Origin: an uncultured delta proteobacterium
Lineage (GTDB): Bacteria; Desulfobacterota; RBG-13-43-22
Assembly (NCBI GenBank): GCA_963743305.1
Contig: CAVUPH010000039.1
Coordinates: 32,001 to 96,000 of the forward strand
Reading direction: 5' to 3'
Length of the DNA stretch: 64,000 bases
A model generated the notes under the pieces. That model ran no database searches and was not told the DNA's origin. It saw nothing but the letters and a program-made list of their open reading frames with translations. The position numbers and the translations under genes are program-made. Shown here piece after piece: positions 30,536-64,000 of this stretch; position 1 is the stretch's first letter, and the number at the start of each line of letters is the position of its first letter.

Positions 30536-30546
30536 AGTTCCCCCGA

Positions 30547-38586: not shown

Positions 38587-38603
38587 TTCACAGAAATGTA
38601 ACC
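38587..38603 (+). promoter_or_regulatory. Pho-box-like site
   Basis: TTCACAGAAATGTAACC. Confidence 0.45.
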
Positions 38604-40768: not shown

Positions 40769-40805
40769 GCAAGAATTTTTCAAATTCTTAAAGGAGTTGA
40801 CTGCC

Positions 40806-43278: not shown

Positions 43279-43340
43279 ATCCGGAATGACAGTCCAAGAC
43301 CAAGGCCAAAAAACCATTTCCTACTGCAAAGGAACCCGCA

Positions 43341-44642: not shown

Positions 44643-44893
44643 CAAATCGTTATCGGAATACCGCTTTACAGGCCCCGGTTCGCCTCCCTCTGGAGCCGAC
44701 GATGATTCTTCATTTGTTTGCAAGAAATTCACCAATTCACCACTGATTATTAACACAAACCTGCTATATATTCCCTGACTCAAGACCGAAGACCAGGCAG
44801 TCGCTCCTGGGTTATGGCTATCAGCCGGATCTGGAGGAAGGTATCATCGCGGAATTTGACCGGGCAATTAGAAACTATGTTGAGCCGGAAGAC

Positions 44894-45211
44894 TTGGGAA
44901 AGGGGTCCATCGAGGTGAAAAACTGTTGGGGCGAGATGGAAAAACTCCCGCTGAAAGACCCTATCCGCATTCTTTGCCTGGATACCAGGCAAAAGGCCAG
45001 TTATATTATCATTCAACGGGGGATCACCATGCACTCCCGTATAACCTTCCGGAAAGCCGGTGAACTGCTTAGGGCCTTCCCGATCGATCTGATTTTTTCC
45101 CAACGGCAAGGCCTGGTCCTCTACCGTGGCCATTTTATCACGGAGATTCCCCAACCTCTCCGGGAAAAAGTCCTGGCTTTTCTGCCGGAAGAAGAACAGC
45201 GAGCCGCCTGA
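44894..45211 (+). CDS. hypothetical protein (true start may be upstream)
   Basis: Open frame between phoH and the acyltransferase; no motif recognised. Confidence 0.35.
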   Translation: MGKGSIEVKNCWGEMEKLPLKDPIRILCLDTRQKASYIIIQRGITMHSRITFRKAGELLRAFPIDLIFSQRQGLVLYRGHFITEIPQPLREKVLAFLPEEEQRAA

Positions 45212-45375
45212 TATCGAAGAGGGTACGGCTTGGACCATCCCCGCCACCGCTGGTAGGCCCAAACCGTTAGTCCTTCTTCATCCATTTATTTCGGATAACC
45301 AATCCCGTTTCCAAGAGTCCGGACCCTAAAAAAAGCAGGGTGCCGGGTTCCAAGGCGGGTGAGGTGGGACCCCCA

Positions 45376-47301
45376 CTATAGACTCGAAATAAGGCTGAAC
45401 AATCGCCGGCCTTCAGGCCGCGTTGGCGGTCTGAGGGCTTTCGGCCTCTTCCGCCCCGGGAAACCGGCCAAGGACCTCGGCCGGATCGGGGTCTGATGGT
45501 GGCTTAGGAAGAAGTCGGCGCCTGCTTTTCCCAGGTATTTTTCCAGCACCACCGGGTTGGTCTTGGCCAGGTCCACCAAAATCAATCCGTCCACCACCCG
45601 GCTGAATTGGGCATCGATATTGAAGCCCAACAGCTTACCCCCTAATTTCAAATACTGTTTCAAGAAAATGGGAATGCCTTTCTGATCCGCTTCCAGTTCG
45701 GCGATCCAATCCGATACCTCGGCCGCATCCCGGATCATGGAAGCCACCGCCTGGTCCATCCAGCCCTTGCGGAGGTCCTGCCGGTAGGGGCGCTTGGCCT
45801 TGACCCAGCGGGCCAGCTCCGGACGATAATTTTGCTCCCGCAAGAATTTTATCAGCAGGGTTTTAGAAACGCGCCGGTAGTCGTCGCTGATGCTCACCGG
45901 CCCGAAGAGAAAGCGGTACCGGGGGTAGCGGACCACATACTGCCCGATGCCTTTCCAGAGCAGCATCAGGGTACTGAAGGCCTTTTGGTATTCCCGGCGG
46001 ATGAAGGATCGCCCCAATTCCAGGGCGGGATGAACCTGCAGGAAAAAGTCGTTGTGAAATTTAAATAGGGAGGTGGTGTAAAGCCCTTTCTTCCCGTAGC
46101 GGCTTAAAATCAAATCCGTGGGCCCCAGACGGTAAGACCCCACCACTTCAAGGGTCTTCTTCTGCCAAAGAATCAGGTGGTGATAATGCGAGTCAAAAAG
46201 GTCCAGGTCGATGGATTCTCCGGTCCCCTCCCCGGCCTCCCGGAAAGTGATTTCCCGCAACCGGCCCACTTCCCTTAAAACATATGGGATCTGAGAGGCG
46301 CGGGCCCAGAAAACCTGCAAAGTCTTCCTGCTCCAGGAGCATCTGAGCATCGGGCAGATTGCGGACTTCTTCCAGCAGGAAATTCTTAACGGTGGGAACG
46401 ACCAGAGGCTTCCAGGCCCGTCTCCGCTTCACCTGCTGCTTTTCTGCACTCTTTTGATTCAGAGGCAAGACGCTTACCCAGCAGATAGGTTCGCTGCCGG
46501 AGATAGTCGATCAGCTCCCGATCGTTTGGAAAACGCTCTATTTTTTTGAAGGGGATCGGCTGACCGATCTTGATTTCAATCCGGGAATCCATTTTGTTCA
46601 GCAGCTCATGGGACAGCATGGCCGTCCGGAGCAGCGGGTGGATCAATCCCAGGAGATGAAACCAGGCGCTGTTTCTTCCCTGAAAATAGACCGGAACCAC
46701 CGAGGCCCTGGTTTTCCTGATCAGGCCGGCCACCAGCTCTCCCCACTCCGGGTCGGTGATGGACCTCTTTTTCAAATGCCAGTGGGAGACTTCACCGGCC
46801 GGGAAAATCCCCAGCAGGTTTCCGTTTTTCAGCCAGTCGATGGACTCCCGCAGACCCTTTAAGGTTCTTCCCGGCCGATTCTTTCCGTCCAAAAGGGTCC
46901 ACGAAAATCAGGTGATCCCGCACTTCCGGGATCCGTTCCAAAAGATAATTGGCCATGATCTTCACATCCGGCCGGACCTTGAGGAGCAGATCGGCCAGGA
47001 CGAGGCCTTCGATGCCTCCAAAAGGATGGTTGGCGACTACCACGACCGGTCCCCGACGGGGCAGACGGGCCCGGTCAAGCTCGGATATTTGGTAGCCGAT
47101 GCGCAGTTGGGCCAGCGACCGCTCGAAGAAGGATCGGTCGTCCGATCCCCCGGCCACCTGGTCGTACATCCTGTTCAGGCGGGGAAAGGACAGCGCCCGT
47201 TCCAGAGAGGCCTCGATCAGAGGAAAAAATTTGCGGGGCCAGGGGCGATTGAACTGAAAATCTAATTTAAAGGGGAGGACTTCCGACCTTGTTGCTTCCA
47301 T
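45376..47301 (-). CDS. bifunctional PlsC-like O-acyltransferase/GNAT N-acyltransferase (OlsF-like architecture), frameshifts near 46870 and 46400
   Basis: ANHPFGG.EG and IFPAGEV (PlsC); GRLREITFR.AGEG, YRLG, ELGRSF and LKQYLKLGG (GNAT); AGGAGG RBS. Confidence 0.8.
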
Positions 47302-47455
47302 GACCTACCTCCTTTTTTTAAGGTTTACAGCCAGTTTCTGGAAAAAGGTTTTACCGGAACTGCGTGGCAATTTGATGGTGCGGAGGTGAAAATTAGATAA
47401 CTTATTAATATTTCGGTATTTTTAAATGAATATTTAACAAAATTGATAGAATTCC

Positions 47456-47472
47456 TTCATCAAACTGTCACA
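47456..47472 (+). promoter_or_regulatory. Pho-box-like site
   Basis: TTCATCAAACTGTCACA; CTGTCAC half-site; near-identical site at 50433-50449 on the minus strand. Confidence 0.6.
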
Positions 47473-47493
47473 TTCCTACTATATCTTGGGGTC

Positions 47494-47844
47494 ATGGTTG
47501 ATAAGGACACTACTCCAATTCGATGTCCCCACTGCGAGTCCGAGGCTATCTATCGCTATGGCAAGACCTGGAACAAGAAACAGCGTTACTTCTGCCTGGT
47601 CTGCAGCCGGCAATTCGTCCTCGATCCTGAAAGGGTATCGATGAAGGAGAAACCGACCTGCCCGGCATGCGGCCGGCCCATGCACGTCTATCGCCGTTAT
47701 CCCCGGGTGATCCGGTTCCGTTGTTCCGGCTATCCCGACTGCCGCCACTATCTCAAAATGTTTCTCAAAGGAGGAATGTGCTACAATGAGCTACTACGTC
47801 CATCAAGTTCCTGGCCGACTGCGTATCAAATCGCCCTCGATTAA
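47494..47844 (+). CDS. double zinc-ribbon protein (IS1 InsA-like plus topoisomerase C4-like)
   Basis: CPHC..QRYFCLVC and CPAC..CSGYPDC; no transposase catalytic domain. Confidence 0.65.
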   Translation: MVDKDTTPIRCPHCESEAIYRYGKTWNKKQRYFCLVCSRQFVLDPERVSMKEKPTCPACGRPMHVYRRYPRVIRFRCSGYPDCRHYLKMFLKGGMCYNELLRPSSSWPTAYQIALD

Positions 47845-48157
47845 AAACAATCAGACGGAAGCGGTGGTGGTGGAAAATCTTCTGAAGGAAATGGAAGGTA
47901 TTAAATCCACCTCGGTCAGCACCCTGACCGGCAGCGTGGTAGTAAATTATGACTCTCGGATGGTCAGCGATCAAATGATCATCTCCCGATTGACCGACCT
48001 GGGACATTTTAAGCCGGCCCAGGCCAAAACCAACGACGAATATATCCAGGGGGCCTTTTCCACTGCCGGAGAGATCGTCTGGAAGGCCTTCTTCGGTTCT
48101 TTTGTGGATGTCGCCCTGGCCGGCACGCCGATATCATTTGTCTCCGTTTTGATGTAA
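47786..48157 (+). CDS. HMA2-like domain protein
   Basis: HQVPGRLRIK..TGSVVVNYD; AAGGAGG RBS. Confidence 0.8.
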   Translation: MSYYVHQVPGRLRIKSPSIKNNQTEAVVVENLLKEMEGIKSTSVSTLTGSVVVNYDSRMVSDQMIISRLTDLGHFKPAQAKTNDEYIQGAFSTAGEIVWKAFFGSFVDVALAGTPISFVSVLM

Positions 48158-48196
48158 TAATCCCCCAAAGCTCTTTTCTTGTCTCAACCCTCCTTC

Positions 48197-48225
48197 ATGC
48201 CCCGGTATCCGGGGCATCTTTTTTT
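48197..48225 (+). terminator. intrinsic terminator
   Basis: atgccccgg-tat-ccggggcat followed by a T run. Confidence 0.75.
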
Positions 48226-48366
48226 GGTAACCTGTTCGGCCCGGATTAGAAGTCCGGAGTACCTTTGGAAAATCCTTCGCCGAGACCCGGCAGCCTCACC
48301 AAATTGGTGGGACCTCCCCAAAGGGGAAAACGCCTTTTAAATGAAAGGACGCCTTCCGGATCTTGT

Positions 48367-48654
48367 TCAATCGGCCCTCTGCCCGCCGGGCAGTCCTTTT
48401 TTCTTGAAATAATTATTGGGCTTGGGTCTCCCGGCCTTGGCGGACGCCCACTGGTAAAATACCGGCAGGGGCGGGGACCCAGCCAATTCCTTGATAATCC
48501 TGTTCACATCCCGGTCCGATTCTTTCCCGGCGTTGACCTTTAAGATCTGCGGGCAATCACGGCAAACCTCATAACTCAAATCGCGAAGGGCCCTTTCCTG
48601 TCGCTTCCGGCAGGTGCCGACTTTCATCGTGGCTTTTAGTCTTTTACAAAACAT
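48367..48654 (-). CDS. hypothetical Cys-containing protein
   Basis: GGTGAGG RBS; FC..C..CRDC. Confidence 0.45.
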   Translation of the reverse strand: MFCKRLKATMKVGTCRKRQERALRDLSYEVCRDCPQILKVNAGKESDRDVNRIIKELAGSPPLPVFYQWASAKAGRPKPNNYFKKKGLPGGQRAD

Positions 48655-49046
48655 GGGTGCCTCACCTTCCTGAAATTGGGTACTTACAGTTTCATAACTA
48701 TTCTCTATGATCTCTGGGTGCTCTGTGAGAGATCGTCTTTGGTCTTTGGTTGTGAATAGGCGGCGTTAATGAATCCGGTCAATATTATTTTGTGACCGCC
48801 AATAACCTAAATACGAATTTACCAGGGAAGCGTTACAGGAATATGAAGGAAAGGTTTTTTTTAGGGATTAAACTCGGTGGCCGGACCCGGTTTTCGAGAG
48901 GAGAGACGACTGGATAACTGGAATAGGGAACCGGCGGGCAATCACCGGTTCCCTATTATTGGGTTGATTAGTTCAGTCTCTCTTTTGTCAAGTGACCTGT
49001 CTTTGACGGCAAGTCGGTCTCCGCTCCATCACGACCAAGATCTCTT

Positions 49047-50378
49047 TTATTGGGCAAACCGGCTCACGGCAAAATCACCGTTGTGATTGATAACCGCCCA
49101 GGCCGTATTGGTTTCCCGATCGAGGCCGTGCGTTCCCAACGGGTATTCGGCTTTCCACGGGCCGGCGACGAATTTTTTGAAGCTGGTTCCTGAATTCAAC
49201 TCCACGGCATTGACCCACCGGCCCCGTTCATTCTTGGCCACGAGGCCGGAACCGCCCCGACCCACTTTGTTTCGGTCAAAGGTCATCGAAAGGGCGTAGG
49301 TGTCGGTCTGATCGCTCCCCAGGTCGGCCATACCCCATCGGAATAGTATTCAAGGGTCAGGCGGGGACCGTCGACGGTGAAGATGTAAAAACCCACGGCG
49401 TACCTTTCCCGAGACAGGGAGGTCTGGGCCCTTTTCTGACCGTACCACTTGGGGTCATCCAGGGTCTTGGGCGTATAGAATTTGCTGCTGTTGGAGGCGC
49501 AGATCAGTTCCCGGGCTTTGTAGGCCCCGTTCGGACTGACGATGATGGAGCGCTGGTGGATGTGGTCGTGGCCAATGATGTAGTAGGCGGCGTTGTTGAG
49601 CTGCAGGCTGGCAAAGAAAGCATCTTGCCAAGCCGGGTGGGCATTCGCGTATCCGGTGAAAGGCGAATCCTGGTGGTTTTCACCCATCAGATTCTGGTGG
49701 GAGAAGACGAAAACATGTCCCGGACCGCGGGTGTTTTTATCAAGACGGCTGCTGATCCAGTCCTGCTGGTCGTCGACGGAGTAGCCATACATGTAATAGG
49801 GCGAAGGGGTTCACGCTCTTGCTGGGGGTTACCCAGGGGTCGATGATGACGAAGCGGGCGTCATTGCCCGCGGTACCGTAATCGAAAGAGTAACTCATGC
49901 CGTCCAGGTCGGCGCTGACCGACGTCGGGCTGTTGAAGTTCGTCGCGCCGAAGGTGTTCCCCCTGCCTCGGGTCTGCGGGAAGCTTTTCCTAAATTGAGT
50001 GATGCCGTAATTATTGTTCCCGTTGGGTTTGGCATACGTCTCGTGATTGCCGCGCATGGGGAAGAAGCCGATCTTGGAATCATACAACAGTTGCACGGCG
50101 GCGGCACGGGTGGCGATATCCGTGTCGTTGCCGTTTTCGGTTAGGTCGCCGACCTGGATAACGAACTTTACGCCGTGCTTGATGAACTGCTCATTGAGCT
50201 GTTCGATAATTGAAACCGGGACCCCGTTGGGATTCTTTCCGGCCGGGTCGGCAGGAGCCGTCCATTGCGTGTCGGCCATGACCCCGAATTTCCAGGGTTC
50301 AGCCGATGCGGATCCTATCCCGACCAGCAGCCCGGTGATTAAGACCAACAGGGCGCTTAAACCAAAGATTCTTTTCAT
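49047..50378 (-). pseudogene. secreted metallophosphoesterase paralog, frameshifted and internally deleted
   Basis: ADTQ, GDL, RGNHE, GHDH; C-terminal WVNAV..TAWAVINHNGDFAV as in 51198-53036. Confidence 0.75.
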
Positions 50379-50432
50379 CCTTCCCTCTCCTTTCAAAATT
50401 CTTAAATCTGCTCTTTTAATTTTAGCGGGCTG

Positions 50433-50449
50433 TGTTACAGTTTGATGGC
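50433..50449 (-). promoter_or_regulatory. Pho-box-like site upstream of the metallophosphoesterase
   Basis: Minus strand GCCATCAAACTGTAACA. Confidence 0.55.
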
Positions 50450-50871
50450 CAATTGGGGTCGATTTGAAGTTCTCCCCCCCTCCCTTTTAGACCCTCTCGG
50501 GAAATGAATACGAAGGAAAGTTTTTTTAGGCTTCGTTCGCGATGGAGGCGAAGAAACCCACCCACCCGATCATTGCGAGGGGTGAAGCGACAAATCGATC
50601 CTCGACAATTGGATGATGGTCAGATAATGGTTTTTTAACCGAATTGTCATACTGGCCGACGTCCTTCGATTTTGCACCCGGCAATCTTTCAGAAAGCCTA
50701 CCGAAAACTGAATTCCCCTCCTGGAGTTCATTTCCTTCCCTGTAATTGAATCTTTATCAGCCGGTCATCCTCCCGTTACATTCCTCCGGTATGGTACTCC
50801 CCAACGTTCGGATCACCGAGGTGATTCGGACTTATTAAAGATGTCATAATTGTCTGTACATACCACCGACC

Positions 50872-50955
50872 GTCATCCCCGAGTGTTTTTGTCGGGGATC
50901 CAGAATCGTAGCAGATAGGGGCTGGATTCCCGCCCAGAAGCACTGCGGGAATGAC
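50872..50955. repeat. GTCATCCCCG...CGGGAATGAC palindromic repeat
   Basis: Nested hairpin; related pieces at about 25500-25590 and 63612-63655. Confidence 0.7.
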
Positions 50956-51197
50956 GATAAGAGAACATCGAGATAGTCGGTTTTATTATGAGACCGTTAA
51001 TAATCCCCTCGGCTTTAAAATTATCTTCTCAAAACAAAATGATCCGCGTGGAAGCGTGAAGGAGGTGAGGCTTTTCGCGAGACGAACCCAACGAGTAAGA
51101 CAGGTTTTCCTGTCCAAGGACACTAAATTGTTTACGGGAACGTATAGTAGAACAGACAACATTCTAAAATCTAACAAAAATTTGAAAGGAAAATAAG

Positions 51198-53036
51198 ATG
51201 AAAAGAATACTTTGTTCCAAAACATTGTTGGCCCTGCTGCTCGCGATTTTCATCGCGGCAGGGTCGGCATCCGGAGAACCCTGGAAATTCGGCGTCATCT
51301 CGGACACCCAGTGGACCATAAAAGACGACGGCAAGAACCCTAATACCTGCGCCGCCGACATCATTAAGCAGGTAGATCAGCAGTTCATCGCCGAGGGTGT
51401 TAAACTCGTTGTCCACGTCGGCGACATGGTGAACACAGGCAGCCAAGTCAATGACTACGTACGGGCGCTCTATGCCCAGGACCTGTACAATGCGGGCATC
51501 GGCTTTTACCCGCTGCGCGGCAACCACGAGGCAGCCAACGGAATCTATACGGGCTCAGGTGAAGACTATACGTATGCCTACCCGCAGATCGTGCCTGGCC
51601 CCAACGCCGGTTTTAATAATAACACCCCGGACAGCATCACGACAGCCCTCATCCCCATCGACGACCTAAACCCCGACACCGGCAATCCCCCGGAGGACAA
51701 GACCAAACATAAAATCTTCAAAGTGGGCGGTAAATTCTCCGCACCAGACAGCGTCAATACTTACACCGGCGGAGTGTCGTACGCCTTCGACTACAAAAAC
51801 GTGACCTTCATGCTGCTCGACCAGTTCAAATCTCCCGATTACTACACCAGCTACATCCCGGATCAGCAGGCCTGGATCGAAAGCACCCTCTCCAGCCGTC
51901 CGGCCAACACCCACGCTTTCGCCTTCACCCACAAGAATATCCTGGGCGGCAACCACAAGGACAATATGTTCGGTGGTCCCGCCAGCGGCAACGATCCGGG
52001 GGACGGCTACGGGATTGACCCCAGCACCCCGATTTCTACTACCCCGGGGCTTACTGTTGGTGGCAAGCAGTCCGCCATGAAGACCTTCCTTGACTCGATG
52101 CAGACCAACAAAGTCAAGTACGTGATCTCAGGCCATGATCACCATCACTATAACTCCGTAGTCACCAGCCTCGATCAACAGAGCAAAGTCCATCAGCTCA
52201 TCACCGCTTCCGATAGCTCCAAGTTTTACACGCCTGGCACTCCCGTCTCACCCAATGACGCGCCGATTGAGCAGGATCTGGCCCGTATCGGATATTACAT
52301 CTTCACCGTGGACGGCCCGCGCGTGACCATCGACTACTATGCCGACGACCATGGCAATTGGCAGTCGGACTCTAAATTCCCCAATAACAACGTAGACCTC
52401 ATCAACTTCCCCCTCGGGACCACCCCTACTCTCAACTTCGTCAAGCGGTCCACCACGGGCTACAGCTTGAACGGTATAGAGAACCTCGTTGCTCAAGGCG
52501 CGTCCTATGCCATGACCGACGACACCGACGTTGCCGCCCATATGGAACGCGGGTATGTCGGTACCTCCATGGCCATCCTCGACGGCATTAACGGAAGCAC
52601 GGCCACGACCAATTACGGCAAAGCGACCGAAAAAGCCGTCAACACCGGCTGGGCGCCTAAGAATAACGGCACCCGGAAGTGCTCTGATGATCCCGAAAGC
52701 GATATTCTGACCCTCTGGGGCATGGCCGACCTCGGCACCGAGCAGGCCGATACCTTTGTCCTCTCCATGAGCTACGATCATCACCGCTTGCTCCCGGTTC
52801 AATTCGGACACGGCTTGTTAGGCCTGGCCACCCCGGATGAGAAAGGCAACTGGGTCAACGCCGTTGATATGAATTTTGGTGACGGCAGCGTCAAAAAATT
52901 TGTCCTCGGCCCCTACAACTCGAGCTATGGTCTCGGCACCTATGGTATCGACCTAAAAAAACACACGGCCTGGGCGGTCATTAACTACGATGGCGATTTC
53001 GCCGTAGCCGGTTTTAGACATTTCGGAAAAAGATAA
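51198..53036 (+). CDS. secreted calcineurin-like metallophosphoesterase
   Basis: Signal peptide, SDTQ, VGD, RGNHE, GHDH. Confidence 0.85.
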   Translation: MKRILCSKTLLALLLAIFIAAGSASGEPWKFGVISDTQWTIKDDGKNPNTCAADIIKQVDQQFIAEGVKLVVHVGDMVNTGSQVNDYVRALYAQDLYNAGIGFYPLRGNHEAANGIYTGSGEDYTYAYPQIVPGPNAGFNNNTPDSITTALIPIDDLNPDTGNPPEDKTKHKIFKVGGKFSAPDSVNTYTGGVSYAFDYKNVTFMLLDQFKSPDYYTSYIPDQQAWIESTLSSRPANTHAFAFTHKNILGGNHKDNMFGGPASGNDPGDGYGIDPSTPISTTPGLTVGGKQSAMKTFLDSMQTNKVKYVISGHDHHHYNSVVTSLDQQSKVHQLITASDSSKFYTPGTPVSPNDAPIEQDLARIGYYIFTVDGPRVTIDYYADDHGNWQSDSKFPNNNVDLINFPLGTTPTLNFVKRSTTGYSLNGIENLVAQGASYAMTDDTDVAAHMERGYVGTSMAILDGINGSTATTNYGKATEKAVNTGWAPKNNGTRKCSDDPESDILTLWGMADLGTEQADTFVLSMSYDHHRLLPVQFGHGLLGLATPDEKGNWVNAVDMNFGDGSVKKFVLGPYNSSYGLGTYGIDLKKHTAWAVINYDGDFAVAGFRHFGKR

Positions 53037-55346: not shown

Positions 55347-56705
55347 ATGAGACTGCTGATCATTGGCGGGAGCGATGCCGGGATAAGCGCGGCTATCCGG
55401 GCCCGGGAATTGGATCCATCTATTTCAGTCGGGGTAGTACTCCGCGATGCCTATCCCAACTACAGCATTTGCGGCATCCCTTTCTTTATCAGCGGCGAAA
55501 CGGCCGATTGGACGAATCTGGCCCACCGGTCTCTGGGGGAGCTAGAGGAAACCGGTATCGAGATTAGAAGGAACACCCAGGCCCTGCGACTGAACCCGGA
55601 ATCCAAAGAAGTACTCGTAGGCGATTCGTCCGGCCGTTCGGAATCGATGAAATACGATCGATTGATCTTGGCTACCGGCGCCCAACCCGTCGTCCCTTCC
55701 CTGGAAGGATTGAGTCAACCCGGAGTTTTCCAAATGCGCTGGATGGAGGACGCCCTGGCCCTGGCCCGCTTTATTGACCAAAGAAAGCCCCGTCGGGCGG
55801 CCATTGTCGGCGCGGGGTATATCGGTCTCGAAATGGCCGATGCCTTGAGCAAGTTGGGGATTGAAGTTAACCTGATCCAACGTTCCTCGCAGGTCTTGAA
55901 AACACTGGACCCGGAGTTGGGTGGATCGGTCAAGAGTGAATTGGAGCGGCACGGGGTTCGTGTTTTGACCGGCCGACCCCCGGAAAGCATTCGGAGAAAC
56001 GGCGATACATTGCGGGTTCTGGGACCGGAGGGCTTGGCCGTCGAAGCGGACCTGGTGCTGGTGGTGACGGGCGTCCGGCCGCAAGCCGCCCTGGCAGCGG
56101 ATTCCGGTGCCGCCACCGGAATCCAAAACGCTATAAAGGTTAACCGCCGGATGCGGACCAGCCTGACCGATGTCTTTGCCGCCGGAGATTGCGTCGAAAC
56201 CTGGCATCGTCTTTTGGAGACCTTTGTTTATCTGCCCCTGGGTACCACTGCCCACAAACAGGGAAGGGTAGCCGGTGAGAATGCCGCGGGCGGGCAGGCG
56301 CTGTTTGCCGGCAGTCTGGGGACCCAGGTCGTCAAGGTTTTTGACCTGGTGGCCGCCCGGACCGGTCTCCTGAACCGGGAGGCCCTGGAGGCCGGTTTCC
56401 AACCGCTTTCAATAAAAAAAGAGCTCTGGGACCACAAGGCCTATTATCCCGGTGCCAAAAAACTGATCGTCCATCTGACCGGGGACCAGGAAAGCGGACG
56501 ATTGCTGGGGGCCCAAATTTTGGGGCCTTATGGGGCCGAGATTTCAAAACGGATCGATATCCTGGCCGCGGGGCTCTATGCCGGCCTAAACGTCCAGGAT
56601 CTGCCGGAGATGGATCTCAGTTATACGCCGCCCCTATCAAGCCCCTGGGATCCGGTCCAAATGGCCGCTCTATCCTGGCTGGATGAAAAGGCCAGGATAC
56701 AATAA
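55347..56705 (+). CDS. CoA-disulfide reductase/NADH oxidase family flavoprotein
   Basis: IGGSDAG, YSICGIP single Cys, GAGYIGLE, AAGDC, DLSYTPP. Confidence 0.88.
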   Translation: MRLLIIGGSDAGISAAIRARELDPSISVGVVLRDAYPNYSICGIPFFISGETADWTNLAHRSLGELEETGIEIRRNTQALRLNPESKEVLVGDSSGRSESMKYDRLILATGAQPVVPSLEGLSQPGVFQMRWMEDALALARFIDQRKPRRAAIVGAGYIGLEMADALSKLGIEVNLIQRSSQVLKTLDPELGGSVKSELERHGVRVLTGRPPESIRRNGDTLRVLGPEGLAVEADLVLVVTGVRPQAALAADSGAATGIQNAIKVNRRMRTSLTDVFAAGDCVETWHRLLETFVYLPLGTTAHKQGRVAGENAAGGQALFAGSLGTQVVKVFDLVAARTGLLNREALEAGFQPLSIKKELWDHKAYYPGAKKLIVHLTGDQESGRLLGAQILGPYGAEISKRIDILAAGLYAGLNVQDLPEMDLSYTPPLSSPWDPVQMAALSWLDEKARIQ

Positions 56706-56736
56706 TGGTTTGGTTTTTATAGAAAAGGGGGATTGT

Positions 56737-57936
56737 TTACGCTTTCAGCAACGGGGCCTTGTCGGTCAGTTCCCAGGGTAGCCCGATGTCCATGCGGCCC
56801 ACATGTCCGTAAGCCGCCAGCTTGCGGTAAAAGCCGCCCTTGACCACGGCCGGCTGGTAGCGGAGGTTGAATTGTTTGATGATCCCGGCCAGACGGAAAT
56901 CAAAATGGTTCTTGATCAGCCCGGAAATTTCTTTGTCCGGAATGGTGCCGGTGCCGAAGGTCTCCACCTCGATGCTGGCCGGTCGCGGGAGACCGATGGT
57001 ATAGGTGAGCTGCACTTCACACTCCCGGGCCAGGCCGGCGGCCACCACGTTTTTGGCCGCGTAGCGGGCCGCGTAGGCCCCGATACGGTCGATTCGCAAG
57101 GGATCCTTGCCGCTCAGAGCCGCGCCGCTATGCCGGGCGTATTCCCCGTAGGTGTCGATGGCCGTCTTCCGGCCGGTCAACCCGGAATGGACAGCCGGTC
57201 CGCCGATCAGGAAAGGCCCGTCGGGATTGATGAAAATGCGGGTTCGGTCGTCCGGCTGGATCTCTTCGTCATGAAAAATCTGGTCCACCACCACTTCCCG
57301 GATATCGTCGGTCAACTTTTTCAAATCGGGCCCTCCGGCCTGGGGCGACATTTTCTGGCTGGCAATCACGGTCACACTGTGAATACGGGAGGGGTGCCCG
57401 CCACGGTATTCCACGCCCACCTGGGTCTTGCCGTCCGGAGACAGGTAGGGCAGCACTTTTTGCAGACGGGCCGACGTCAGTTTCCTGGCCAGTTTATGGG
57501 CCAGCCACAGGGGCAGAGGGATCAGGGCCGCGGTCTGATTACAGGCGAAACCAAAAATGTTCACCTGGTTCTTGATCAGGATGCGGTCCATCTCCTCTTC
57601 CGAAATAGTGGCCTCATTAAAAAAAGTCTGGTCTTTGGGCGGCAGCTCCTTCAGGCTGGTGATGATGCTGCAGGTCTTGGCGTTGAAGGCCTGGTGCTCA
57701 TAACCGATCAGGTTCAAGACCTTCCGGGCCACCCCGGGGAAATCCACCGTGGCGCTGGATTCGAACCGGGCGGCGATAAACAGGATGGCCGTGGCCACGG
57801 CGCATTCGGCGATTACCCGGGAAAAAGGATCCTGCTGCAGAAAATGGTCCACAATGGCATCGCTGATCTGGTCGCAGAGTTTGTCGGGATGCCCTTCGGT
57901 GACCGACTCGGACATAAAGACAAAATCCTCTTTCAT
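56737..57936 (-). CDS. metK: methionine adenosyltransferase paralog (divergent)
   Basis: SESVTEGHPDK, DGKTQV, GLTGRK, SGKDP, AAYGH; GAGDQG motif replaced. Confidence 0.85.
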   Translation of the reverse strand: MKEDFVFMSESVTEGHPDKLCDQISDAIVDHFLQQDPFSRVIAECAVATAILFIAARFESSATVDFPGVARKVLNLIGYEHQAFNAKTCSIITSLKELPPKDQTFFNEATISEEEMDRILIKNQVNIFGFACNQTAALIPLPLWLAHKLARKLTSARLQKVLPYLSPDGKTQVGVEYRGGHPSRIHSVTVIASQKMSPQAGGPDLKKLTDDIREVVVDQIFHDEEIQPDDRTRIFINPDGPFLIGGPAVHSGLTGRKTAIDTYGEYARHSGAALSGKDPLRIDRIGAYAARYAAKNVVAAGLARECEVQLTYTIGLPRPASIEVETFGTGTIPDKEISGLIKNHFDFRLAGIIKQFNLRYQPAVVKGGFYRKLAAYGHVGRMDIGLPWELTDKAPLLKA

Positions 57937-58031
57937 GGGGTCTCCTTATTCATCTTATGCTGTCTATACCATTATTCTTAGGGTGATCTTATTGCACACT
58001 TTAGAATCGGAACTTCTCTGCCGCGTTTTTT

Positions 58032-61000
58032 TCAGCCAAAAATTGATTGATTTTTGGCTGTTTCGTTGATCAGCAGGGGGGCCACGGCCGTCCCGCCGAT
58101 GACCAGCCCGTCGATGAGCCCGACCGGCGAAAGCTGCATAAGGGACCGCAACCCGGGCACGAACAGGGTCGAGATCTGCAACAGCACGGAAGCGGCCAGG
58201 GCCTGGGTCAACAAACGGTTGGGCGGCAGCTTTTCCTTGGAAAAGATACTGATATGGTCGGACCGGCAACTGAAGGCATGGAGCAACTGGCCGATGCTCA
58301 GGCTCATGAACGCCAGGGTATTGGCCTGGGGACCCCGGCCGTAGCGGACCAAGCCGTACCCGTAGGCCGACAGGGCACCGGCGGACAGCACCCCGGATTC
58401 GATCATGATCTTTTTAAAATCCTGCCGGCGGATGATCGGCTCTTTCGGGTCCCGGGGCGGTTTGGTAAGCACATCCGGCTCCGGCAGTTCCATGGCCAGG
58501 GCCAATCCGGGGAAGATGTCCGAGATCAGGTTGATCCAGAGAAGCTGCATGGCGTTCAGCGGCTCGCCCAGGCCGACCGCCAGCGAGCTGAAAACTACGA
58601 TGATTTCGCTCATGTTGGTAGCCAGCAGGAAATGAATGGCCTTGCGGATATTGTTGTAGATGGTCCGGCCCTGCTTGACGGCGATGATCATGGTTTCGAG
58701 GCGGTCATCTTCCAGCACCACGTCGGCCACCTCGCGGGCCACGTCGGTCCCGGATCTTCCCATGGCCACCCCGATGTCGGCCACTTTCAGGGCCGGTCCG
58801 TCATTGATCCCGTCCCCGGTCATGGCCACCACCCGGCCGGCCCGCTGCAGGGCCTGGACGATTTGCAACTTGTGGGCCGGGCTGACCCGGGCAAAGACCT
58901 GGACCTTTTCCGCCAGGGCCTCCAGCAAGTCCGGTTGCAGACTGTCCAGGTTGCTGGAATCCAGGATCTCCAGGTCCTCGTTGCGGTTCAGAGTCAGTGA
59001 CCGGCCGATGGCGTAGGCGGTGGCCGACTGGTCGCCGGTGATCATGACCGTATCGATGCCCGCCGTGTGGAACTGGCCGATCAACTCCTTCACCCCTTCC
59101 CGGACCGGATCGCCCATGCCGACCAGGCCGAGCCAGGTCAGGCCGCCGACCGCATCGGGGTCTTCCAGAAGATCCGCCCCGTCCGACAGCAGCGCGTACC
59201 CCACGGCCAGAACCCGCATGCCTTTTCCGGCCAGGCGCTCATTCTCCATTTCCAGTTCCAGACGGTCCTCTTCCGTGAGCGGTAATCGCTCCCCGTCACG
59301 CATCCAGAAATCGCAAAGGGCTACGACCTCCTGGGGGTTCCCCTTGACCGCCGCTACCCGTTGCCCTTCCTCGGCGGTCCGGTGCAGGGTGATCATGTAG
59401 TTTCGGGTTTCCGTACGCAGGGCCGTTTTTTCAACCGGGAACTGTTCCCGGAGACTCTGAATGTTGACACCGGCCGTCAAGGCCAGGTGAATGAAGGCGT
59501 TCTCCGTGGAAGATCCGCTGACCAGCACATTACCGTCCTGGAAGACCGCGAGCCCCTTGCCCTGGACTTCACGAGTTTTTTGCTGGTACACGTCGGCGTC
59601 GGGGATGAGGGAGCTGACTTCGCTTTCATTGCAGAGGACTGAAATATGGATGAGCTGAAGCAACTCCGGCCGGATGTAAGGATTGACGACTTCTTCCCCC
59701 TGCTTGAACTGATCTTTTTCCAGGTGGATGCGCCGCATCCCCACATTGAGCATGACCACGGACATCCGGTTCAGCGTCAGGGTCCCGGTCTTGTCCATGC
59801 AGATGGTCTGGACCGACCCCAGGGTTTCCACGGCTTCCAGATGCCGGATGAGGACATTGTATTTGCGCATGCGCCGCAAGCCCAGGCCCAACGTGGTGGT
59901 GGCCACGGTGGGCAAGCCTTCCGGGACGGCCGCCACGGCCAGGGAAATGGAGCTCTTCAGCATTTGGAGAAATCCGTAACCCCGAAGAAGGCCGATGACG
60001 AACACCAGACCGCAGACCGCCCCGGAAATCAAGACCAATTGACTGCCCATGGTATCGAGCTGCCGTTCCATGGGGGTTTCCGGGGTCTGGGATTCCCCCA
60101 TCAGGGTCTGGATCCGGCCGATTTCGGTAAACCGGCCGGTGCCCACCACCAGAGCCAATCCCTGCCCCCCGGTCACCAGGGTGCCCATATAGGTCATGTT
60201 GGTCCGATCCGCCAGCGCCACCTCCATCTGCAGCGACGCCCCGTCGGACGCCTGCCCAAAGACCACCAGGGTCTCCGAGGTTTTGGAGACCGGCAGGCTC
60301 TCCCCGGTCAACGCGGATTCATCGATGGTCAGGTTATGGGCCTCGATCAGCCGGGCATCGGCGGTTATATATGTACCCGGACGCAGCACCAGGATATCCC
60401 CCGGGACCACCTCTTCGGCCCTGATTTCTTCGGCCTTCCCGTCCCGGACTACAAGGGCGTGGGGCCGCACCAGGGTCTTCAGAGAGTGAATGGTCTTCTC
60501 GGACTGGCTTTCGGTGACATAGCCGATGACGGCATTGATCAACACCACCGAGGCGATGACCACGGCATCGGCGATCCCGGCCGTGGCCACGGAAATACCG
60601 GCCGCCACCCCCAGCAAGGCTACCGGGAGAGATTTGAACTGGTCGATGAAGATGCTGAAGCCCGAGCGGGGTACCGACTCGGGCAGGACATTGGGGCCGA
60701 ATTTTTTCAGGCGGGAAAGGGACTCCGACTGGGGCAACCCCAGAGCGGAATGGGAGCCGAGCTGTTCCAGCAGATCATGGGCCGCCAGGAAATGCCAGGG
60801 TTGGGCCGTCTGCTCTTCGGAATGGACGACCAGATTCCGGACCTTCCGACGGCTGGAGGCGGTTTTTTGACCGAAAACAGGGGCCAGGGGATGGCGGGAT
60901 TTCGCCTCGGCCGATTCCGTCCGGCGGTTTCCAGACTGTCTTTCCGGAAAAAAATGGGGATAAAGGCCGGCCTTTCTTTCCCGGCCTTCCTTTATCCCGT

Positions 61001-61238
61001 TGTTTGGCTGAAAATTAAGGACCAGTGTTCGAAGCAGCGCTCCCAGATCCTCCGGGGTCCGATGACCGTTGAACCGGATGAGTACATGGCCGGTCAGAAT
61101 ATTGGCGGAAAAAGAATATACTTCCCCGTCTTGGTTCAATTGATTGGCCAGATACTGCTTCAATTCCTCCGAACGGTAAAGGCCCTGGACCCGGTACCGG
61201 GCTCGGCCCCGGACCACCGTATGGATGGCTTCAACCAC
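58032..61238 (-). CDS. P2-type (Ca2+-ATPase-like) cation-transporting ATPase with N-terminal HMA2-like domain
   Basis: GRARY..NILTGHVLI; LTGES, VAAVPEGLP, DKTGT, GDGINDGPALK, LATNMSE, LWINLISD. Confidence 0.92.
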   Translation of the reverse strand: MVEAIHTVVRGRARYRVQGLYRSEELKQYLANQLNQDGEVYSFSANILTGHVLIRFNGHRTPEDLGALLRTLVLNFQPNNGIKEGRERKAGLYPHFFPERQSGNRRTESAEAKSRHPLAPVFGQKTASSRRKVRNLVVHSEEQTAQPWHFLAAHDLLEQLGSHSALGLPQSESLSRLKKFGPNVLPESVPRSGFSIFIDQFKSLPVALLGVAAGISVATAGIADAVVIASVVLINAVIGYVTESQSEKTIHSLKTLVRPHALVVRDGKAEEIRAEEVVPGDILVLRPGTYITADARLIEAHNLTIDESALTGESLPVSKTSETLVVFGQASDGASLQMEVALADRTNMTYMGTLVTGGQGLALVVGTGRFTEIGRIQTLMGESQTPETPMERQLDTMGSQLVLISGAVCGLVFVIGLLRGYGFLQMLKSSISLAVAAVPEGLPTVATTTLGLGLRRMRKYNVLIRHLEAVETLGSVQTICMDKTGTLTLNRMSVVMLNVGMRRIHLEKDQFKQGEEVVNPYIRPELLQLIHISVLCNESEVSSLIPDADVYQQKTREVQGKGLAVFQDGNVLVSGSSTENAFIHLALTAGVNIQSLREQFPVEKTALRTETRNYMITLHRTAEEGQRVAAVKGNPQEVVALCDFWMRDGERLPLTEEDRLELEMENERLAGKGMRVLAVGYALLSDGADLLEDPDAVGGLTWLGLVGMGDPVREGVKELIGQFHTAGIDTVMITGDQSATAYAIGRSLTLNRNEDLEILDSSNLDSLQPDLLEALAEKVQVFARVSPAHKLQIVQALQRAGRVVAMTGDGINDGPALKVADIGVAMGRSGTDVAREVADVVLEDDRLETMIIAVKQGRTIYNNIRKAIHFLLATNMSEIIVVFSSLAVGLGEPLNAMQLLWINLISDIFPGLALAMELPEPDVLTKPPRDPKEPIIRRQDFKKIMIESGVLSAGALSAYGYGLVRYGRGPQANTLAFMSLSIGQLLHAFSCRSDHISIFSKEKLPPNRLLTQALAASVLLQISTLFVPGLRSLMQLSPVGLIDGLVIGGTAVAPLLINETAKNQSIFG

Positions 61239-61244
61239 GTGCGG

Positions 61245-61925
61245 CTATTCGTTCTTCTTGCCCCGTCCCCGGGTGATCTCCGGTGCAGAGGGGGTTTCGC
61301 CCTCGCTAGAGACGGATCTCGCCCCGCTGCCCTTGGGAAGAAGGGAAGAGGCCACTTCCTTGACTCCCTCCACCACGCCGACCAGCATATCCTTCACTGA
61401 TCGGACGGCGGTATTGCCGATGGCGCCGGCGGCCTCGATGGCGCCGCCCACGGCCACTTTGGCCACTTCCTCGACGTTGCCCCCCACTTCCTTCGTGGCC
61501 TCGATCACGCCGTCCACGGCCCGCCGGGCTACCAGGCCTACGTCGGCCCCGATCTCCGCGGCGCCTTTCACGGCCCCTTTGACTGTCTGGCTGGCCACCG
61601 AAACCAAGTCGCCGCCCACGTCGCTGATGCCCATGATCACGCCCTTGGCCACGCTCTTGGTGCTGAGGATCAGGCCCGTGCCGACCTCCTCCGTAGCCTG
61701 GATAGTGCCCTTGACCACATCCTTGGCGACGCTCAGGCTTTCCGTGACCACCGCGCCGCCGGCCCGCAGGGTCGTGGAGACCGTGTTGCGCACCAGGCTG
61801 ACGATCTCGGATTCGATTTCATTGATGCCCTTCAAGCTGCTGACCACGCCTTCCTTGACGGAAGTGCCGGCCTTCCCGATGGTTTCATCCACATTGACGC
61901 CTGTCTTCTCCTGTTTTTCAGTCAT
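61245..61925 (-). CDS. Gly/Ala/Val-rich protein with 11/22-residue amphipathic repeats
   Basis: Consecutive 11-mers such as SVAKDVVKGTI, LSTKSVAKGVI, SVASQTVKGAV, LVARRAVDGVI; start overlaps the upstream stop. Confidence 0.8.
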   Translation of the reverse strand: MTEKQEKTGVNVDETIGKAGTSVKEGVVSSLKGINEIESEIVSLVRNTVSTTLRAGGAVVTESLSVAKDVVKGTIQATEEVGTGLILSTKSVAKGVIMGISDVGGDLVSVASQTVKGAVKGAAEIGADVGLVARRAVDGVIEATKEVGGNVEEVAKVAVGGAIEAAGAIGNTAVRSVKDMLVGVVEGVKEVASSLLPKGSGARSVSSEGETPSAPEITRGRGKKNE

Positions 61926-62413
61926 TACTTTTCTCCCTTAGGTTTCGATTTCAAAAAAATGTTTAAGGCGTACCAGAAGGCCGTGTACCAGGCCGGGGCC
62001 ATGAAGTTGCCGCGGCTGATTTGGTAAATGCCCATGATCAGCAGGGCCCCGAAAGACAGGGTCCCCGCATCCATTTCCCCGCCGGTAAATTTTTTGATCT
62101 TATTTTCTACCTGGTTATATGTTTCAGATACCTGTAGATAAATATTGGAAGAAGGCGAACCGATTTGTTTGGCCTGTCCGGGGAAATAGGTTCGGGCCAG
62201 ATCTTTCATCATTGCCGGGTCCAGGGAATGCTTGATCAGGATGCTGCCGGTGACGGGATTGGCCGCCACCTCATGGATATTGGGATACTTCCCCGCCAGG
62301 TCCTTCAGAGACTGGAAAAAAGCAACGTCCCCTTTTCTCGATGGGATTCTGAGCCGAAACCGCCCGGAGGTGGCGTGGCTGATATAGGCATCAGAAGGCA
62401 AATTGTTGAACAT
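61925..62413 (-). CDS. HMA2-like domain protein with C-terminal hydrophobic segment
   Basis: HATSGRFRLRI..NPVTGSILI; GALLIMGIYQI..APAWYTAFWYA. Confidence 0.82.
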   Translation of the reverse strand: MFNNLPSDAYISHATSGRFRLRIPSRKGDVAFFQSLKDLAGKYPNIHEVAANPVTGSILIKHSLDPAMMKDLARTYFPGQAKQIGSPSSNIYLQVSETYNQVENKIKKFTGGEMDAGTLSFGALLIMGIYQISRGNFMAPAWYTAFWYALNIFLKSKPKGEK

Positions 62414-62447
62414 GACGGTTCCCTCCCTTAAAGGCCGGACTAATTAA

Positions 62448-62750
62448 TTACCTTTGATCTTCTGCTTCAATGGTACCGTCCACGCCTGTCGCCGCCATGG
62501 CTCCGGACCCGGCTTCTTCCAATTCGGCCCTGGTCTCGGCTATTAGGTCCTCCACCACTTCCTGGGCCTCGGCCGCCACTTCCCGGCCTTTCTGGTAAAG
62601 CAGAAAACCGCCCTTGATCGCGGCTTTGGCCATGGGCTTGACAACACTGGCCAAAACAGGTATGACCACAGGTGCCAGAATGGAAGAACCGATACCAATG
62701 GCCAAACCCGTGACGATATTGCCTTTCAGACCGTTATCGAATAGACCCAT
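62448..62750 (-). CDS. small membrane protein (DUF5132-like)
   Basis: GLAIGIG..LAPVVIP..KPMAKAAIKGG..EDLIAE; AAGGAG RBS. Confidence 0.75.
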   Translation of the reverse strand: MGLFDNGLKGNIVTGLAIGIGSSILAPVVIPVLASVVKPMAKAAIKGGFLLYQKGREVAAEAQEVVEDLIAETRAELEEAGSGAMAATGVDGTIEAEDQR

Positions 62751-62858
62751 ATCATCTGCTCCTTTCTCTTTGAAATAAAAATAATAGCTTTTTTCTCTCT
62801 ACTATAATAACAATTAAATCATTATTTGACTACCCAATAGCAATTTCAGGGAAATTTC

Positions 62859-63575
62859 ATGAAACCGATCCCTTTGACAAAACGAATAATCTTTGCCCTG
62901 GACGTTGAAACCCCGGGAGAGGCTCGGGCCTGGGTGGAAAAACTGGAAGACCGGGTGAAGTTTTTTAAAGTCGGGCTTCAGCTTTTTCTGGCCGGAGGGT
63001 TCGAAATCGTCGACTGGATTTTGAAGCGCGGCTCGGAGGTGATGCTGGATCTCAAGTTCTTCGATGTGCCCCAGACCGTGGCCTCCGCCGTCAAGCAACT
63101 GGCTGGCCGGGGGGTATCTTTTACCACCGTTCATGGCAACGACGCCATCCTCCGGGCCGCGGCCGAAGCCAAACAGGGGGTGAAAATCCTGGCGGTTACT
63201 GTTTTGACCAGCCTGGACCAGGGGGACCTGAACGACCTTGGTTTTCAATGCTCCGCGGAAGATCTGGTCCTATCCCGGGCTCGACGGGCCCTGCAGGTCG
63301 GCTGCGACGGGGTGGTCTCCTCAGGCCTGGAAGCGCCGAGGTTGCGAAAGGAACTGGGAGAGAATTTCCTGGTAGTGGTGCCGGGGGTCCGGCCCGTTGA
63401 AAACCGAGTCGATGACCAGAAACGGATTGTCACCGTCCGGGATGCTTTTTTGAACGGCGCCGACTACGTGGTCATCGGCCGCCCCTTGAAACAAGCCGCC
63501 GATCCCCTGGCTCTGGCCGCGGAGATGCAGCAGCAGATCCAAGAAGCCTTAAACGATCCCCATCCGATAAAATAA
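62859..63575 (+). CDS. pyrF: orotidine-5'-phosphate decarboxylase
   Basis: FALD, KVG, DLKFFDVPQT, VTVLTS, PGVR, VIGR. Confidence 0.96.
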   Translation: MKPIPLTKRIIFALDVETPGEARAWVEKLEDRVKFFKVGLQLFLAGGFEIVDWILKRGSEVMLDLKFFDVPQTVASAVKQLAGRGVSFTTVHGNDAILRAAAEAKQGVKILAVTVLTSLDQGDLNDLGFQCSAEDLVLSRARRALQVGCDGVVSSGLEAPRLRKELGENFLVVVPGVRPVENRVDDQKRIVTVRDAFLNGADYVVIGRPLKQAADPLALAAEMQQQIQEALNDPHPIK

Positions 63576-63905
63576 GTCTTCGCCCAGGCGCTTGGAGCGC
63601 CACGAAAAACCGTCATTCCGGACGAGTCACGCGATGTAACGGGATCCGGAATCCCATCCCTCGGTAGAGGGGTTTAAAATATCCCCCCGGCAAACAGGGC
63701 CTTCACGAAATCCCCATAGGGCCAGACCTCGACCTTATCAAATGTGTTTATTATTTATACATTATGTTTATTATTTATACATATTATAATATTACTATTT
63801 TCAATAAGTTATAATTAAATTAAATCATTTTGTATATTTTCAAAACAACGGCAGTCGGATTAAGGAAGGGGTCTTACTGAACAAAATTATGTTTGTTATT
63901 AATTA

Positions 63906-63918
63906 AATCAATTAGTTA
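63906..63918 (+). promoter_or_regulatory. IHF-binding site
   Basis: AATCAATTAGTTA matches WATCAANNNNTTR. Confidence 0.6.
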
Positions 63919-63936
63919 TGTTAGCTACCCCTTTCT

Positions 63937-63951
63937 TGGCACAGCCTTTGC
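63937..63951 (+). promoter_or_regulatory. sigma-54 (-24/-12) promoter for the gene starting at 63991
   Basis: TGGCACAGCCTTTGC with 10 nt between GG and GC; GGAGG RBS and ATG downstream. Confidence 0.8.
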
Positions 63952-64000
63952 TTATTAAATAGTCAATACAAATCAAAACGGAGGGTCATCATGGCTGAAA

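Follow-up and report, generated by a model that had tools for sequence, protein, structure and literature searches.

What would bring a calcium-type cation pump, a small membrane protein, a CoBaHMA protein, an amphipathic repeat protein and a relative of S-adenosylmethionine (SAM) synthetase together in one place? The question is raised by five genes of an uncultured delta proteobacterium (GTDB lineage Bacteria; Desulfobacterota; RBG-13-43-22). They lie in a 64,000-nucleotide stretch of DNA that was analysed as a whole and is called the window here (GenBank assembly GCA_963743305.1, contig CAVUPH010000039.1, positions 32,001 to 96,000 of the forward strand). In the order of reading, the five genes are:

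62448-62750 (-): DUF5132 small membrane protein (Pfam PF17195, E 3.1e-10; 43-homolog alignment; hydrophobicity scan)
61925-62413 (-): CoBaHMA (HMA_2) hairpin protein (Pfam PF19991, E 1.4e-17, profile positions 9-153 of 154; alignment; AlphaFold2 (AF2) model)
61245-61925 (-): REP, an amphipathic 22-residue-repeat protein (alignment, AF2 model, periodicity, hydrophobic moment)
58032-61238 (-): P2A-type cation ATPase with an N-terminal CoBaHMA domain (residues ~5-61) and a linker of ~85 residues (Pfam, NCBIfam, solved relatives)
56737-57936 (-): MetK paralog (TIGR01034 metK, 365 bits against a cut-off of 309)

The gaps between them are short: 34 bp between DUF5132 and HMA_2, a 1-bp overlap between HMA_2 and REP, 6 bp between REP and the ATPase, and 95 bp between the ATPase and the MetK paralog. 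An initial annotation made from the letters of the sequence had described five co-oriented, tightly spaced minus-strand reading frames, encoding a small GxxxG membrane protein, an HMA2-like protein, an amphipathic-repeat protein, a P2-type pump lacking the P1B signature and a MetK paralog. All of the frames are present at these coordinates, and each of the descriptions is borne out by the evidence given below. Together the five genes make up a single conserved module resembling an operon; it is real, widespread and apparently undescribed. As to its function, we read it by analogy as a system that may build or load a membrane-bounded store of a cation, perhaps with phosphate, similar to a ferrosome and run by a Ca-type pump; we take this for a live possibility that falls short of probable.

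A conserved module in many anaerobic bacteria

To survey its distribution, an alignment of the CoBaHMA-hairpin protein was scanned against one genome per species, which gave 217 relatives, from whose loci the best 80 were retained. Because these loci were selected through one of the five genes, the frequencies among them are conditional. They come from Nitrospirota, several orders of Thermodesulfobacteriota, NC10 and a few metagenome-assembled genomes with other labels, and the carriers include many anaerobic bacteria of the first two groups. All five genes are found in the same order and on the same strand in 56 of the 80 loci, and nine more keep the order with REP alone missing. The other 15 carry partial clusters, of which 12 are cut by contig ends and three (L034, L054 and L106) are internal. 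Counted singly with phmmer, DUF5132 has a match in 79 loci; the ATPase follows with 73, REP with 72 and the MetK paralog with 66. Recurrence of order and strand on this scale is far beyond chance, and the synteny that the initial annotation had wished to see checked in other genomes is thus kept across phyla.

In 401 genomes sampled evenly from the phylum, REP was present in 30 and DUF5132 in 35, mostly in a few families. In that sample, DUF5132 occurs at 13 places outside REP-bearing clusters; ten of these adjoin an HMA_2-P2 ATPase, eight of them together with a MetK paralog. Several genera of the family to which the window belongs carry the cluster, and some of its additional copies have degenerated as whole units. 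In that family, the first three genes were seen in extra copies at L028/L035 (G014:C15), L024/L034 (G014:C28) and L023 (G010:C23), and in one extra copy they are followed by a truncated ATPase remnant fused to the C-terminal part of MetK. These extra copies reflect the decay of duplicated clusters.

No description of the five-gene set was found in the searchable literature, in agreement with the initial annotation, which knew of none; the paper on CoBaHMA, in which the fusion to the ATPase may be listed, lies outside that search. The operon is a concrete and widely distributed candidate system. Among sequencing runs, the best DNA match contains 0.22 of the words. In one sediment RNA library (X17), all 30 bins are covered by contigs that are 85-99% alike, with one piece spanning the DUF5132/HMA_2 junction. 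We rejected these contigs as evidence for transcription of the window operon, since they derive from relatives and DNA carry-over is possible. An inverted repeat with a 12-bp stem (window 58033-58060) lies over the stop codon of the ATPase gene, ahead of the 95-bp gap to the MetK paralog, and may be an attenuator or a processing site.

The pump is of the P2 type

From its domain content, the pump is readily placed. Pfam recognizes E1-E2_ATPase, Cation_ATPase_N and Cation_ATPase_C, with HMA_2 at residues 5-61, and its best solved relatives are human SPCA1 (1.2e-149), Listeria LMCA1 and SERCA. Across 57 members of the pump family the motifs PEGLP, DKTGT, TN.SEI (with Asn and Glu of transmembrane helix (TM) 5) and WINLisD (with Asn and Asp of TM6) are conserved; these motifs, and Ca pumps as nearest relatives, identify a P2-type pump without the P1B signature. 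Like SPCA1, LMCA1 and SERCA, the window pump has the full P2 domain set, TGES, DKTGT, PEGLP and the Asn and Asp of TM6. Unlike them, it has an additional N-terminal CoBaHMA domain, which keeps H6, G11, R12 and R14, followed by a linker, and it scores below the cut-offs of the equivalog models. A further difference lies in TM5, where the pump has Asn and Glu at the places occupied by Ser and Ala in SPCA1. Since SPCA1 has Ser and Ala at these two places, and assuming the SERCA residue numbering, we read the ion-binding region of the pump as SERCA-like and as holding two sites.

A second CoBaHMA-fused P2-like ATPase is encoded in the window at 35472-38591 (-), directly upstream of pstSCAB-phoU and on the same strand. 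In this protein PSGIS replaces PEGLP in TM4 and a 5-residue gap deletes the Asp of TM6, so that its ion site looks degenerate. Its ortholog in L114 is 46% identical and is located away from pst genes.

The MetK paralog has a rebuilt substrate pocket

A canonical metK (589 bits) is present elsewhere in the same genome, and therefore the copy in the cluster is a paralog. When 54 cluster MetK paralogs were aligned to E. coli MetK, whose residue numbers are used here, H14, D16, E42, K245, K265 and D271 were found to be retained in all of them, D163 in 53 and K165 in 44. Other positions have changed: D238H and K269R are found in 54 of 54, E55R in 50, D118N in 46 and R229P in 37, and Q98 is retained in none. 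The window protein itself carries E55R, Q98L, D118N, D238H and K269R with the triphosphate/Mg/K site retained. Reportedly, Taylor and Markham observed in 1999 that D118N and D238N cut SAM synthesis ~1000-fold, with tripolyphosphate hydrolysis much less affected. In the E. coli enzyme, methionine is bound by Q98, D238 and E55, according to the portion of the source consulted (PMC1282579). With these methionine-contact residues replaced, the paralog is unlikely to be an ordinary SAM synthetase, as judged from its residues.

The paralog resembles MetK in that it belongs to the same three-domain fold family, keeps the triphosphate and metal residues and passes the cut-off of the model. It differs in the replaced methionine contacts, in D118N and K269R, and in always being a second copy beside a pump. 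Being a natural MetK derivative whose triphosphate site is intact and whose substrate pocket has been rebuilt, it is of interest for the evolution of enzymes.

The CoBaHMA-hairpin protein and DUF5132

The Pfam family HMA_2 corresponds to the CoBaHMA family, as given in passages of 10.1101/2024.07.07.602159. This family is recognised by three features: a strand beta0 added to the HMA fold, a His that is conserved ahead of beta1, and basic side chains in beta1/beta2 (PMC8890360, in the part consulted). The protein encoded at 61925-62413, of 162 residues, matches nearly the whole PF19991 model and carries this signature: H13, R18, R20 and K27 are conserved in the family alignment, and beta0 and beta1 are modelled at residues 10-15 and 18-22. 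Its AF2 model (predicted local distance difference test (pLDDT) 72.7) has the order beta0-beta1-alpha1-beta2-beta3-alpha2, followed by helices at 90-110, 116-133 and 141-155. Behind a linker helix, the last two helices form a C-terminal hairpin (116-133/141-155; YQISRGNF.APAWYTAFWYALNIFLKS) that is nearly invariant across phyla.

The DUF5132 proteins share one layout in 43 homologs, namely a hydrophobic GxxxGxG segment, a basic helix (KP.AKAAIKGG) and an acidic, E/A-rich helix. In the window protein residues 10-38 are hydrophobic and include GLAIGIG, of which G19 is invariant and G21 conserved in at least 90% of the 43 homologs. A complex prediction that paired the CoBaHMA domain of the pump (1-90) with the DUF5132 helix (34-90) scored 0.28, where the mark is 0.32, and speaks neither for nor against binding.

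REP is an amphipathic helical repeat protein

Of the accessory proteins REP is the most conserved, with a mean column identity of 54%. It has a period of 22 residues (self-similarity of 0.53 at offset 22), and its mean hydrophobic moment of 0.39 compares with 0.20 +/- 0.025 in 500 shuffles. The AF2 model (pLDDT 72) is all-helical, with seven helices. The identity of the protein was not so clear. No Pfam or NCBIfam family matched REP above cut-off, and the ESM Atlas gave no named family for it. When a REP profile was run against 1.84 billion representatives, 775 relatives came up at E <= 1e-3. Leads to Pfam families, mostly below threshold, were obtained for members of the REP family: in 38 members, Senescence was hit in 11, Phasin_2 in 11, Synuclein in three and Perilipin in one. 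The REP paralog L057:14341-15042 passes the Senescence gathering score (25.5 against 24.6 bits); the window REP itself has no Pfam match of the Senescence or phasin type. By sequence similarity, these weak leads all point to coats of droplets, granules or curved membranes.

In operons that lack REP, a REP-like gene (233-470 aa) is found downstream on the opposite strand with its own copy of the upstream motif TAGGYAAGTAATGAAA, as at L056:12990-14556 (-) and L057:14341-15042 (-).

An upstream motif nearly specific to the operon

Of 65 usable upstream regions, 49 have the motif TAGGYAAGTAATGAAA ahead of the first gene. A -35-like GACA comes after it, and several loci add a -10-like hexamer. The window has a degenerate copy:

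62811-62836 (-): degenerate copy of TAGGYAAGTAATGAAA, here GGGTAGTCAAATAATGATTT (position weight matrix (PWM) score of 13.4 bits, against a median of 29.6 at 49 sites of other loci)

Promoter-like hexamers are found at 62849-62804, upstream of the first gene, and are the sole promoter-like sites in 56400-63000; the degenerate copy lies within this stretch. With a threshold of 18 bits, the PWM has 66 matches in 1.03 Mb, 57 of them right upstream of the operon; the remaining ones precede REP paralogs, an MntP-like gene, an OprO/P phosphate porin gene (locus L079), a low-molecular-weight phosphatase gene and others. The MntP-like gene, for a putative Mn efflux protein, is found in a same-genus genome between the MetK paralog and a flavoprotein gene (L030:13748-14386 (-)); a strong motif copy (26 bits) precedes it, and the window lacks this gene.

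As to what the motif is, Rfam gave no match at gathering score in nine loci and chance-level microRNA rows alone in window 56000-64000, and thus TAGGYAAGTAATGAAA is not a known riboswitch. It was also considered as the start of a leader peptide (AGG-N6-ATG), which was rejected because the short frames diverge in length and sequence after six codons. Judged by its sequence context, a DNA site beside the -35-like GACA is favoured over a leader peptide. In Nitrospirota (L041-L109; e.g., L048, L052 and L073), the pstS promoters have three to four GTAACA/TTAACA repeats with an 11-bp period, which make up a Pho-box array.

Comparison with ferrosomes, PacL and the ccyA neighbourhood

Three known systems offer themselves for comparison. 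According to the parts of the sources consulted, FezA and FezB suffice for ferrosomes in E. coli (10.1101/2025.09.22.677801), ferrosomes store iron as phosphate (10.64898/2026.06.16.732667), and P1B-6 pumps (FezB) have an SCA-type TM4 motif and N-X18-HNx(S/T) as hallmarks (PMC13460109). HMA_2 occurs in 68 of the 401 genomes of the phylum sample. In the fez-like loci L131, L134 and L136 it stands at the N-terminus of P1B ATPases whose TM4 has SCA or SCV and which have HNx(S/T) close to the C-terminus, and the second, CPC-type pump of these loci carries it as well. Since HMA_2 heads the P1B-6 pumps of these three loci, this domain of the window pump is common to fez-type clusters. Further likenesses to fez are the small hydrophobic GxxxG proteins, the extra HMA_2 proteins (HMA_2 is found on the window pump and on two further window proteins), the anaerobic carriers and, going by the source cited above, a stored mineral that contains phosphate, next to a module that is linked to phosphate here. 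The differences are just as plain. The window pump is P2A (PEGLP) and not P1B-6 (SCA, HNx(S/T)); pst/phoU and phosphatases surround the operon and not Feo/Fur, neither of which is among the recurrent neighbour clusters, so that the iron-gene association of fez clusters is missing; and REP and the MetK paralog have no place in the fez-like loci examined. The analogy to ferrosomes is therefore partly supported. A homolog search with one fez-locus small protein found four relatives, none with a Pfam family.

In L112 (G041), immediately after the MetK gene of the P2 operon, there is a divergent pair composed of a DUF5132 gene and a gene for an 814-aa HMA_2-P1B ATPase (L112:2598-5341). This ATPase has a CPC motif (474 bits on TIGR01525) and lacks HNx(S/T). 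It was rejected as a FezB and resembles the second, CPC-type pump of fez-like loci.

As described in passages of PMC13460109, the PacL family consists of small membrane proteins that have a GxxG TM motif and Glu/Ala repeats; their genes stand directly upstream of those for P-type ATPases, whose metal-binding domains the PacL proteins bind. DUF5132 is similar to the PacL of mycobacterial PacL-Ctp effluxosomes in its glycine TM motif, in its E/A-rich cytosolic helix and in the position of its gene upstream of a P-type ATPase (an order found in 65 of the 80 loci), and both systems have a P-type pump with a non-canonical N-terminal HMA-like domain. Unlike PacL, DUF5132 has no match to DUF1490, the domain of the mycobacterial scaffold, or to DUF6110 (0 of 43 members, even at E <= 10), is found with a P2 rather than a P1B pump and with three further conserved genes, and is not in Actinobacteria.

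The one paper that mentions DUF5132 in the literature searched (10.1101/2024.07.07.602159) concerns Microcystis ccyA and intracellular amorphous Ca carbonate. Its passages at hand report two DUF5132 genes and a CoBaHMA-hairpin gene beside ccyA and a Ca2+/H+ exchanger, with correlated expression. In both settings DUF5132 and CoBaHMA-hairpin proteins are next to a calcium transporter. The Microcystis locus has an exchanger and calcyanin, in contrast to the Ca-type ATPase of the window (no search for calcyanin was made here), and those passages report neither REP nor a MetK paralog. The operon thereby links DUF5132 and CoBaHMA, so far tied to cyanobacterial intracellular carbonate alone, to a Ca-type ATPase in unrelated anaerobes.

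The phosphate neighbourhood

The initial annotation had placed the cluster in a Pho-regulon neighbourhood, and this setting recurs elsewhere: pst/phoU genes are found within 8 kb in 26 of the 80 loci. Within the same distance are Zn-ribbon genes in 18 loci, GNAT Acetyltransf_5 in 14, DUF3562 in 11, a PlsC-type acyltransferase in nine and LMWPc in eight. The cluster of other families adjoins genes for an alkaline phosphatase, an Exo_endo_phos protein and a GNAT fused to an acyltransferase (the fused form at L123). The window has the same kinds of genes at a greater distance. The link to phosphate is real as a gene neighbourhood; direct Pho control of the operon would be a further, speculative step. 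Through this neighbourhood the pump, its accessory families and the MetK derivative are all connected to the way in which bacteria of sediment and soil handle phosphate.

What the module might do

In the proposed mechanism the P2A-type pump would export a Ca2+-type divalent cation from the cytoplasm. DUF5132 with its GxxxG TM segment and acidic helix, the hairpin-anchored CoBaHMA protein and the soluble REP would place the pump in a specialised, curved membrane domain. The MetK-derived protein, with its ATP/triphosphate-metal site kept and its usual methionine binding lost, may provide or convert a compound that carries phosphate or an adenosyl group, and the module as a whole would be tied to the phosphate economy of the cell. 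Carried to its full extent, the proposal describes a lipid-bounded organelle that stores a Ca-type cation and phosphate in many anaerobic Nitrospirota and Thermodesulfobacteriota. The P2 pump would load it, the CoBaHMA and DUF5132 hairpin proteins would shape it, REP would coat it, the MetK-derived enzyme would supply or trim a phosphate-bearing partner, and a dedicated regulator would switch it on at TAGGYAAGTAATGAAA. In all these parts together we judge the proposal unlikely; if true, the organelle would be the non-iron counterpart of the ferrosome.

In favour of a cation store speak the conservation of the module, the class of the pump, the domains shared with the fez and ccyA systems, the coat-like leads of REP, and the phosphate genes nearby, together with the motif before the phosphate porin gene in L079. 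Several observations weigh against such a cation store. The best NCBIfam models all score below cut-off (PMR1-type 618 against 798 bits, SERCA-type 506 against 703, PMCA-type 392 against 507), so that the pump appears to belong to a separate P2A-like clade and we infer its ion, which is most likely Ca2+ and possibly Mn2+. The Pfam leads of REP are mostly below cut-off and could be compositional. With its model Foldseek found designed helical repeats alone (E 2e-3, TM-score about 0.5), and REP is predicted as a compact helical repeat and not as an obvious membrane binder. The initial annotation had also claimed the same accessory toolkit as in fez clusters. This stands for the CoBaHMA domain, common to FezB-like pumps; DUF5132 is at most a doubtful candidate for the FezA family: no Pfam match to DUF5132 was obtained at E <= 1e-4 in the fez-like genomes examined, and hhalign of DUF5132 against two fez-locus small proteins with a similar layout of TM and acidic helix gave probabilities of 59.5% (E 9e-5) and 2.7%. 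The GlyZip/GxxxG-rich proteins of fez-like loci, in turn, have no counterpart in the window cluster. On the side of phosphate, TAGGYAAGTAATGAAA was rejected as a Pho box, as pstS upstream regions have GTAACA/TTAACA repeats with an 11-bp period. A Pho-box-like dyad is found in 12 of 65 operon upstream regions, all from Nitrospirota, compared with 61 of 2000 random windows. Proximity to pst/phoU, seen in several lineages, is concentrated in Nitrospirota, and hence the 26 loci are not independent. The vesicle or granule itself would be a surmise for every carrier. Finally, a PacL-type platform in the plasma membrane is, by analogy, as close a model as the ferrosome, and the accessory set suits it just as well. 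This model was absent from the initial annotation, as were the loss of the methionine-binding residues in the MetK paralog and the Microcystis neighbourhood.

On such an 'effluxosome'-like platform, DUF5132 would be a small single-pass scaffold like PacL, whose acidic helix would bind the CoBaHMA domain of the pump, stabilising and clustering it in the cell membrane, which we consider possible but somewhat doubtful. The same reserve applies to its physiological side, namely that Ca2+ or Mn2+ would be exported under phosphate stress, once the buffering by polyphosphate and the anionic phospholipids are lost, with the basic patch of CoBaHMA sensing anionic lipid. The idea draws on the likeness of DUF5132 to PacL in layout and gene position, and on what passages of PMC13460109 say of the TM motif, E/A repeats, gene position and pump binding of PacL proteins. 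CoBaHMA has been proposed to contact anionic lipids (in a passage citing Gaschignard 2024), phosphate-limited sulfate reducers replace >90% of their phospholipids (PMC5193443, in the part consulted), and genes of that type adjoin the operon. The motif before the MntP-like efflux gene in L030 also fits export. On the other hand, none of the 43 DUF5132 members matches DUF1490 or DUF6110, and the conserved soluble REP, the second, hairpin-anchored CoBaHMA protein and the MetK paralog are left unexplained. Even if a platform is what the genes encode, the PacL/Fez principle of a small scaffold, an HMA-like domain and a P-type pump would be extended from P1B to P2 pumps.

A further reading takes the MetK paralog for a working SAM synthetase, feeding methylation or aminocarboxypropyl transfer for phosphorus-free lipids in phosphate starvation, with the pump and its helpers adjusting the cation balance of the remodelled membrane and no special compartment or platform involved. 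The score above the metK cut-off agrees with this, as do genes of ornithine-lipid type, a glycosyltransferase and a methyltransferase in the window that recur elsewhere. We nevertheless hold this aid to lipid remodelling to be improbable, given the replacement of the methionine-binding Q98, D238 and E55, the D118N change in 46 of 54 paralogs and the canonical metK elsewhere in the genome. It is scarcely credible that the genes share no function and are just neighbours on a mobile or conserved stretch. Their patchy occurrence within the phylum, with REP in few families, would suit this, but order and strand are kept across phyla where the flanking genes differ, the upstream motif is near-specific to the operon, and copies decay as units.

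Neighbouring genes in the window

The following features of the window accompany the five genes:

29882-34229 (-): pstS-pstC-pstA-pstB-phoU operon (Pfam), 22 kb from the five genes
45376-46892 (-): GNAT Acetyltransf_5 gene (45376-46350) and acyltransferase gene (46386-46892) (Pfam), a pair that recurs near the operon elsewhere
47443-47844 (+): Zn-ribbon protein gene (Zn-ribbon families), just before the stand-alone CoBaHMA gene
47786-48157 (+): stand-alone CoBaHMA protein gene (Pfam HMA_2, E 3.4e-15)

The GNAT and acyltransferase pair is presumably of the ornithine-lipid-synthase type. The pair of Zn-ribbon and small CoBaHMA genes also recurs beside the operon in other genomes, with the Zn-ribbon cluster in 18 of the 80 loci and small HMA_2 genes in many. 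Between the two pumps (window 39358-53036) are genes for a methyltransferase, a GT4 glycosyltransferase, PIN-PhoH, the GNAT and acyltransferase pair and two metallophosphoesterases. Together with pst, this region looks like a phosphate-starvation island. One of its metallophosphoesterases, of 612 aa, has an N-terminus that by eye resembles a signal peptide.

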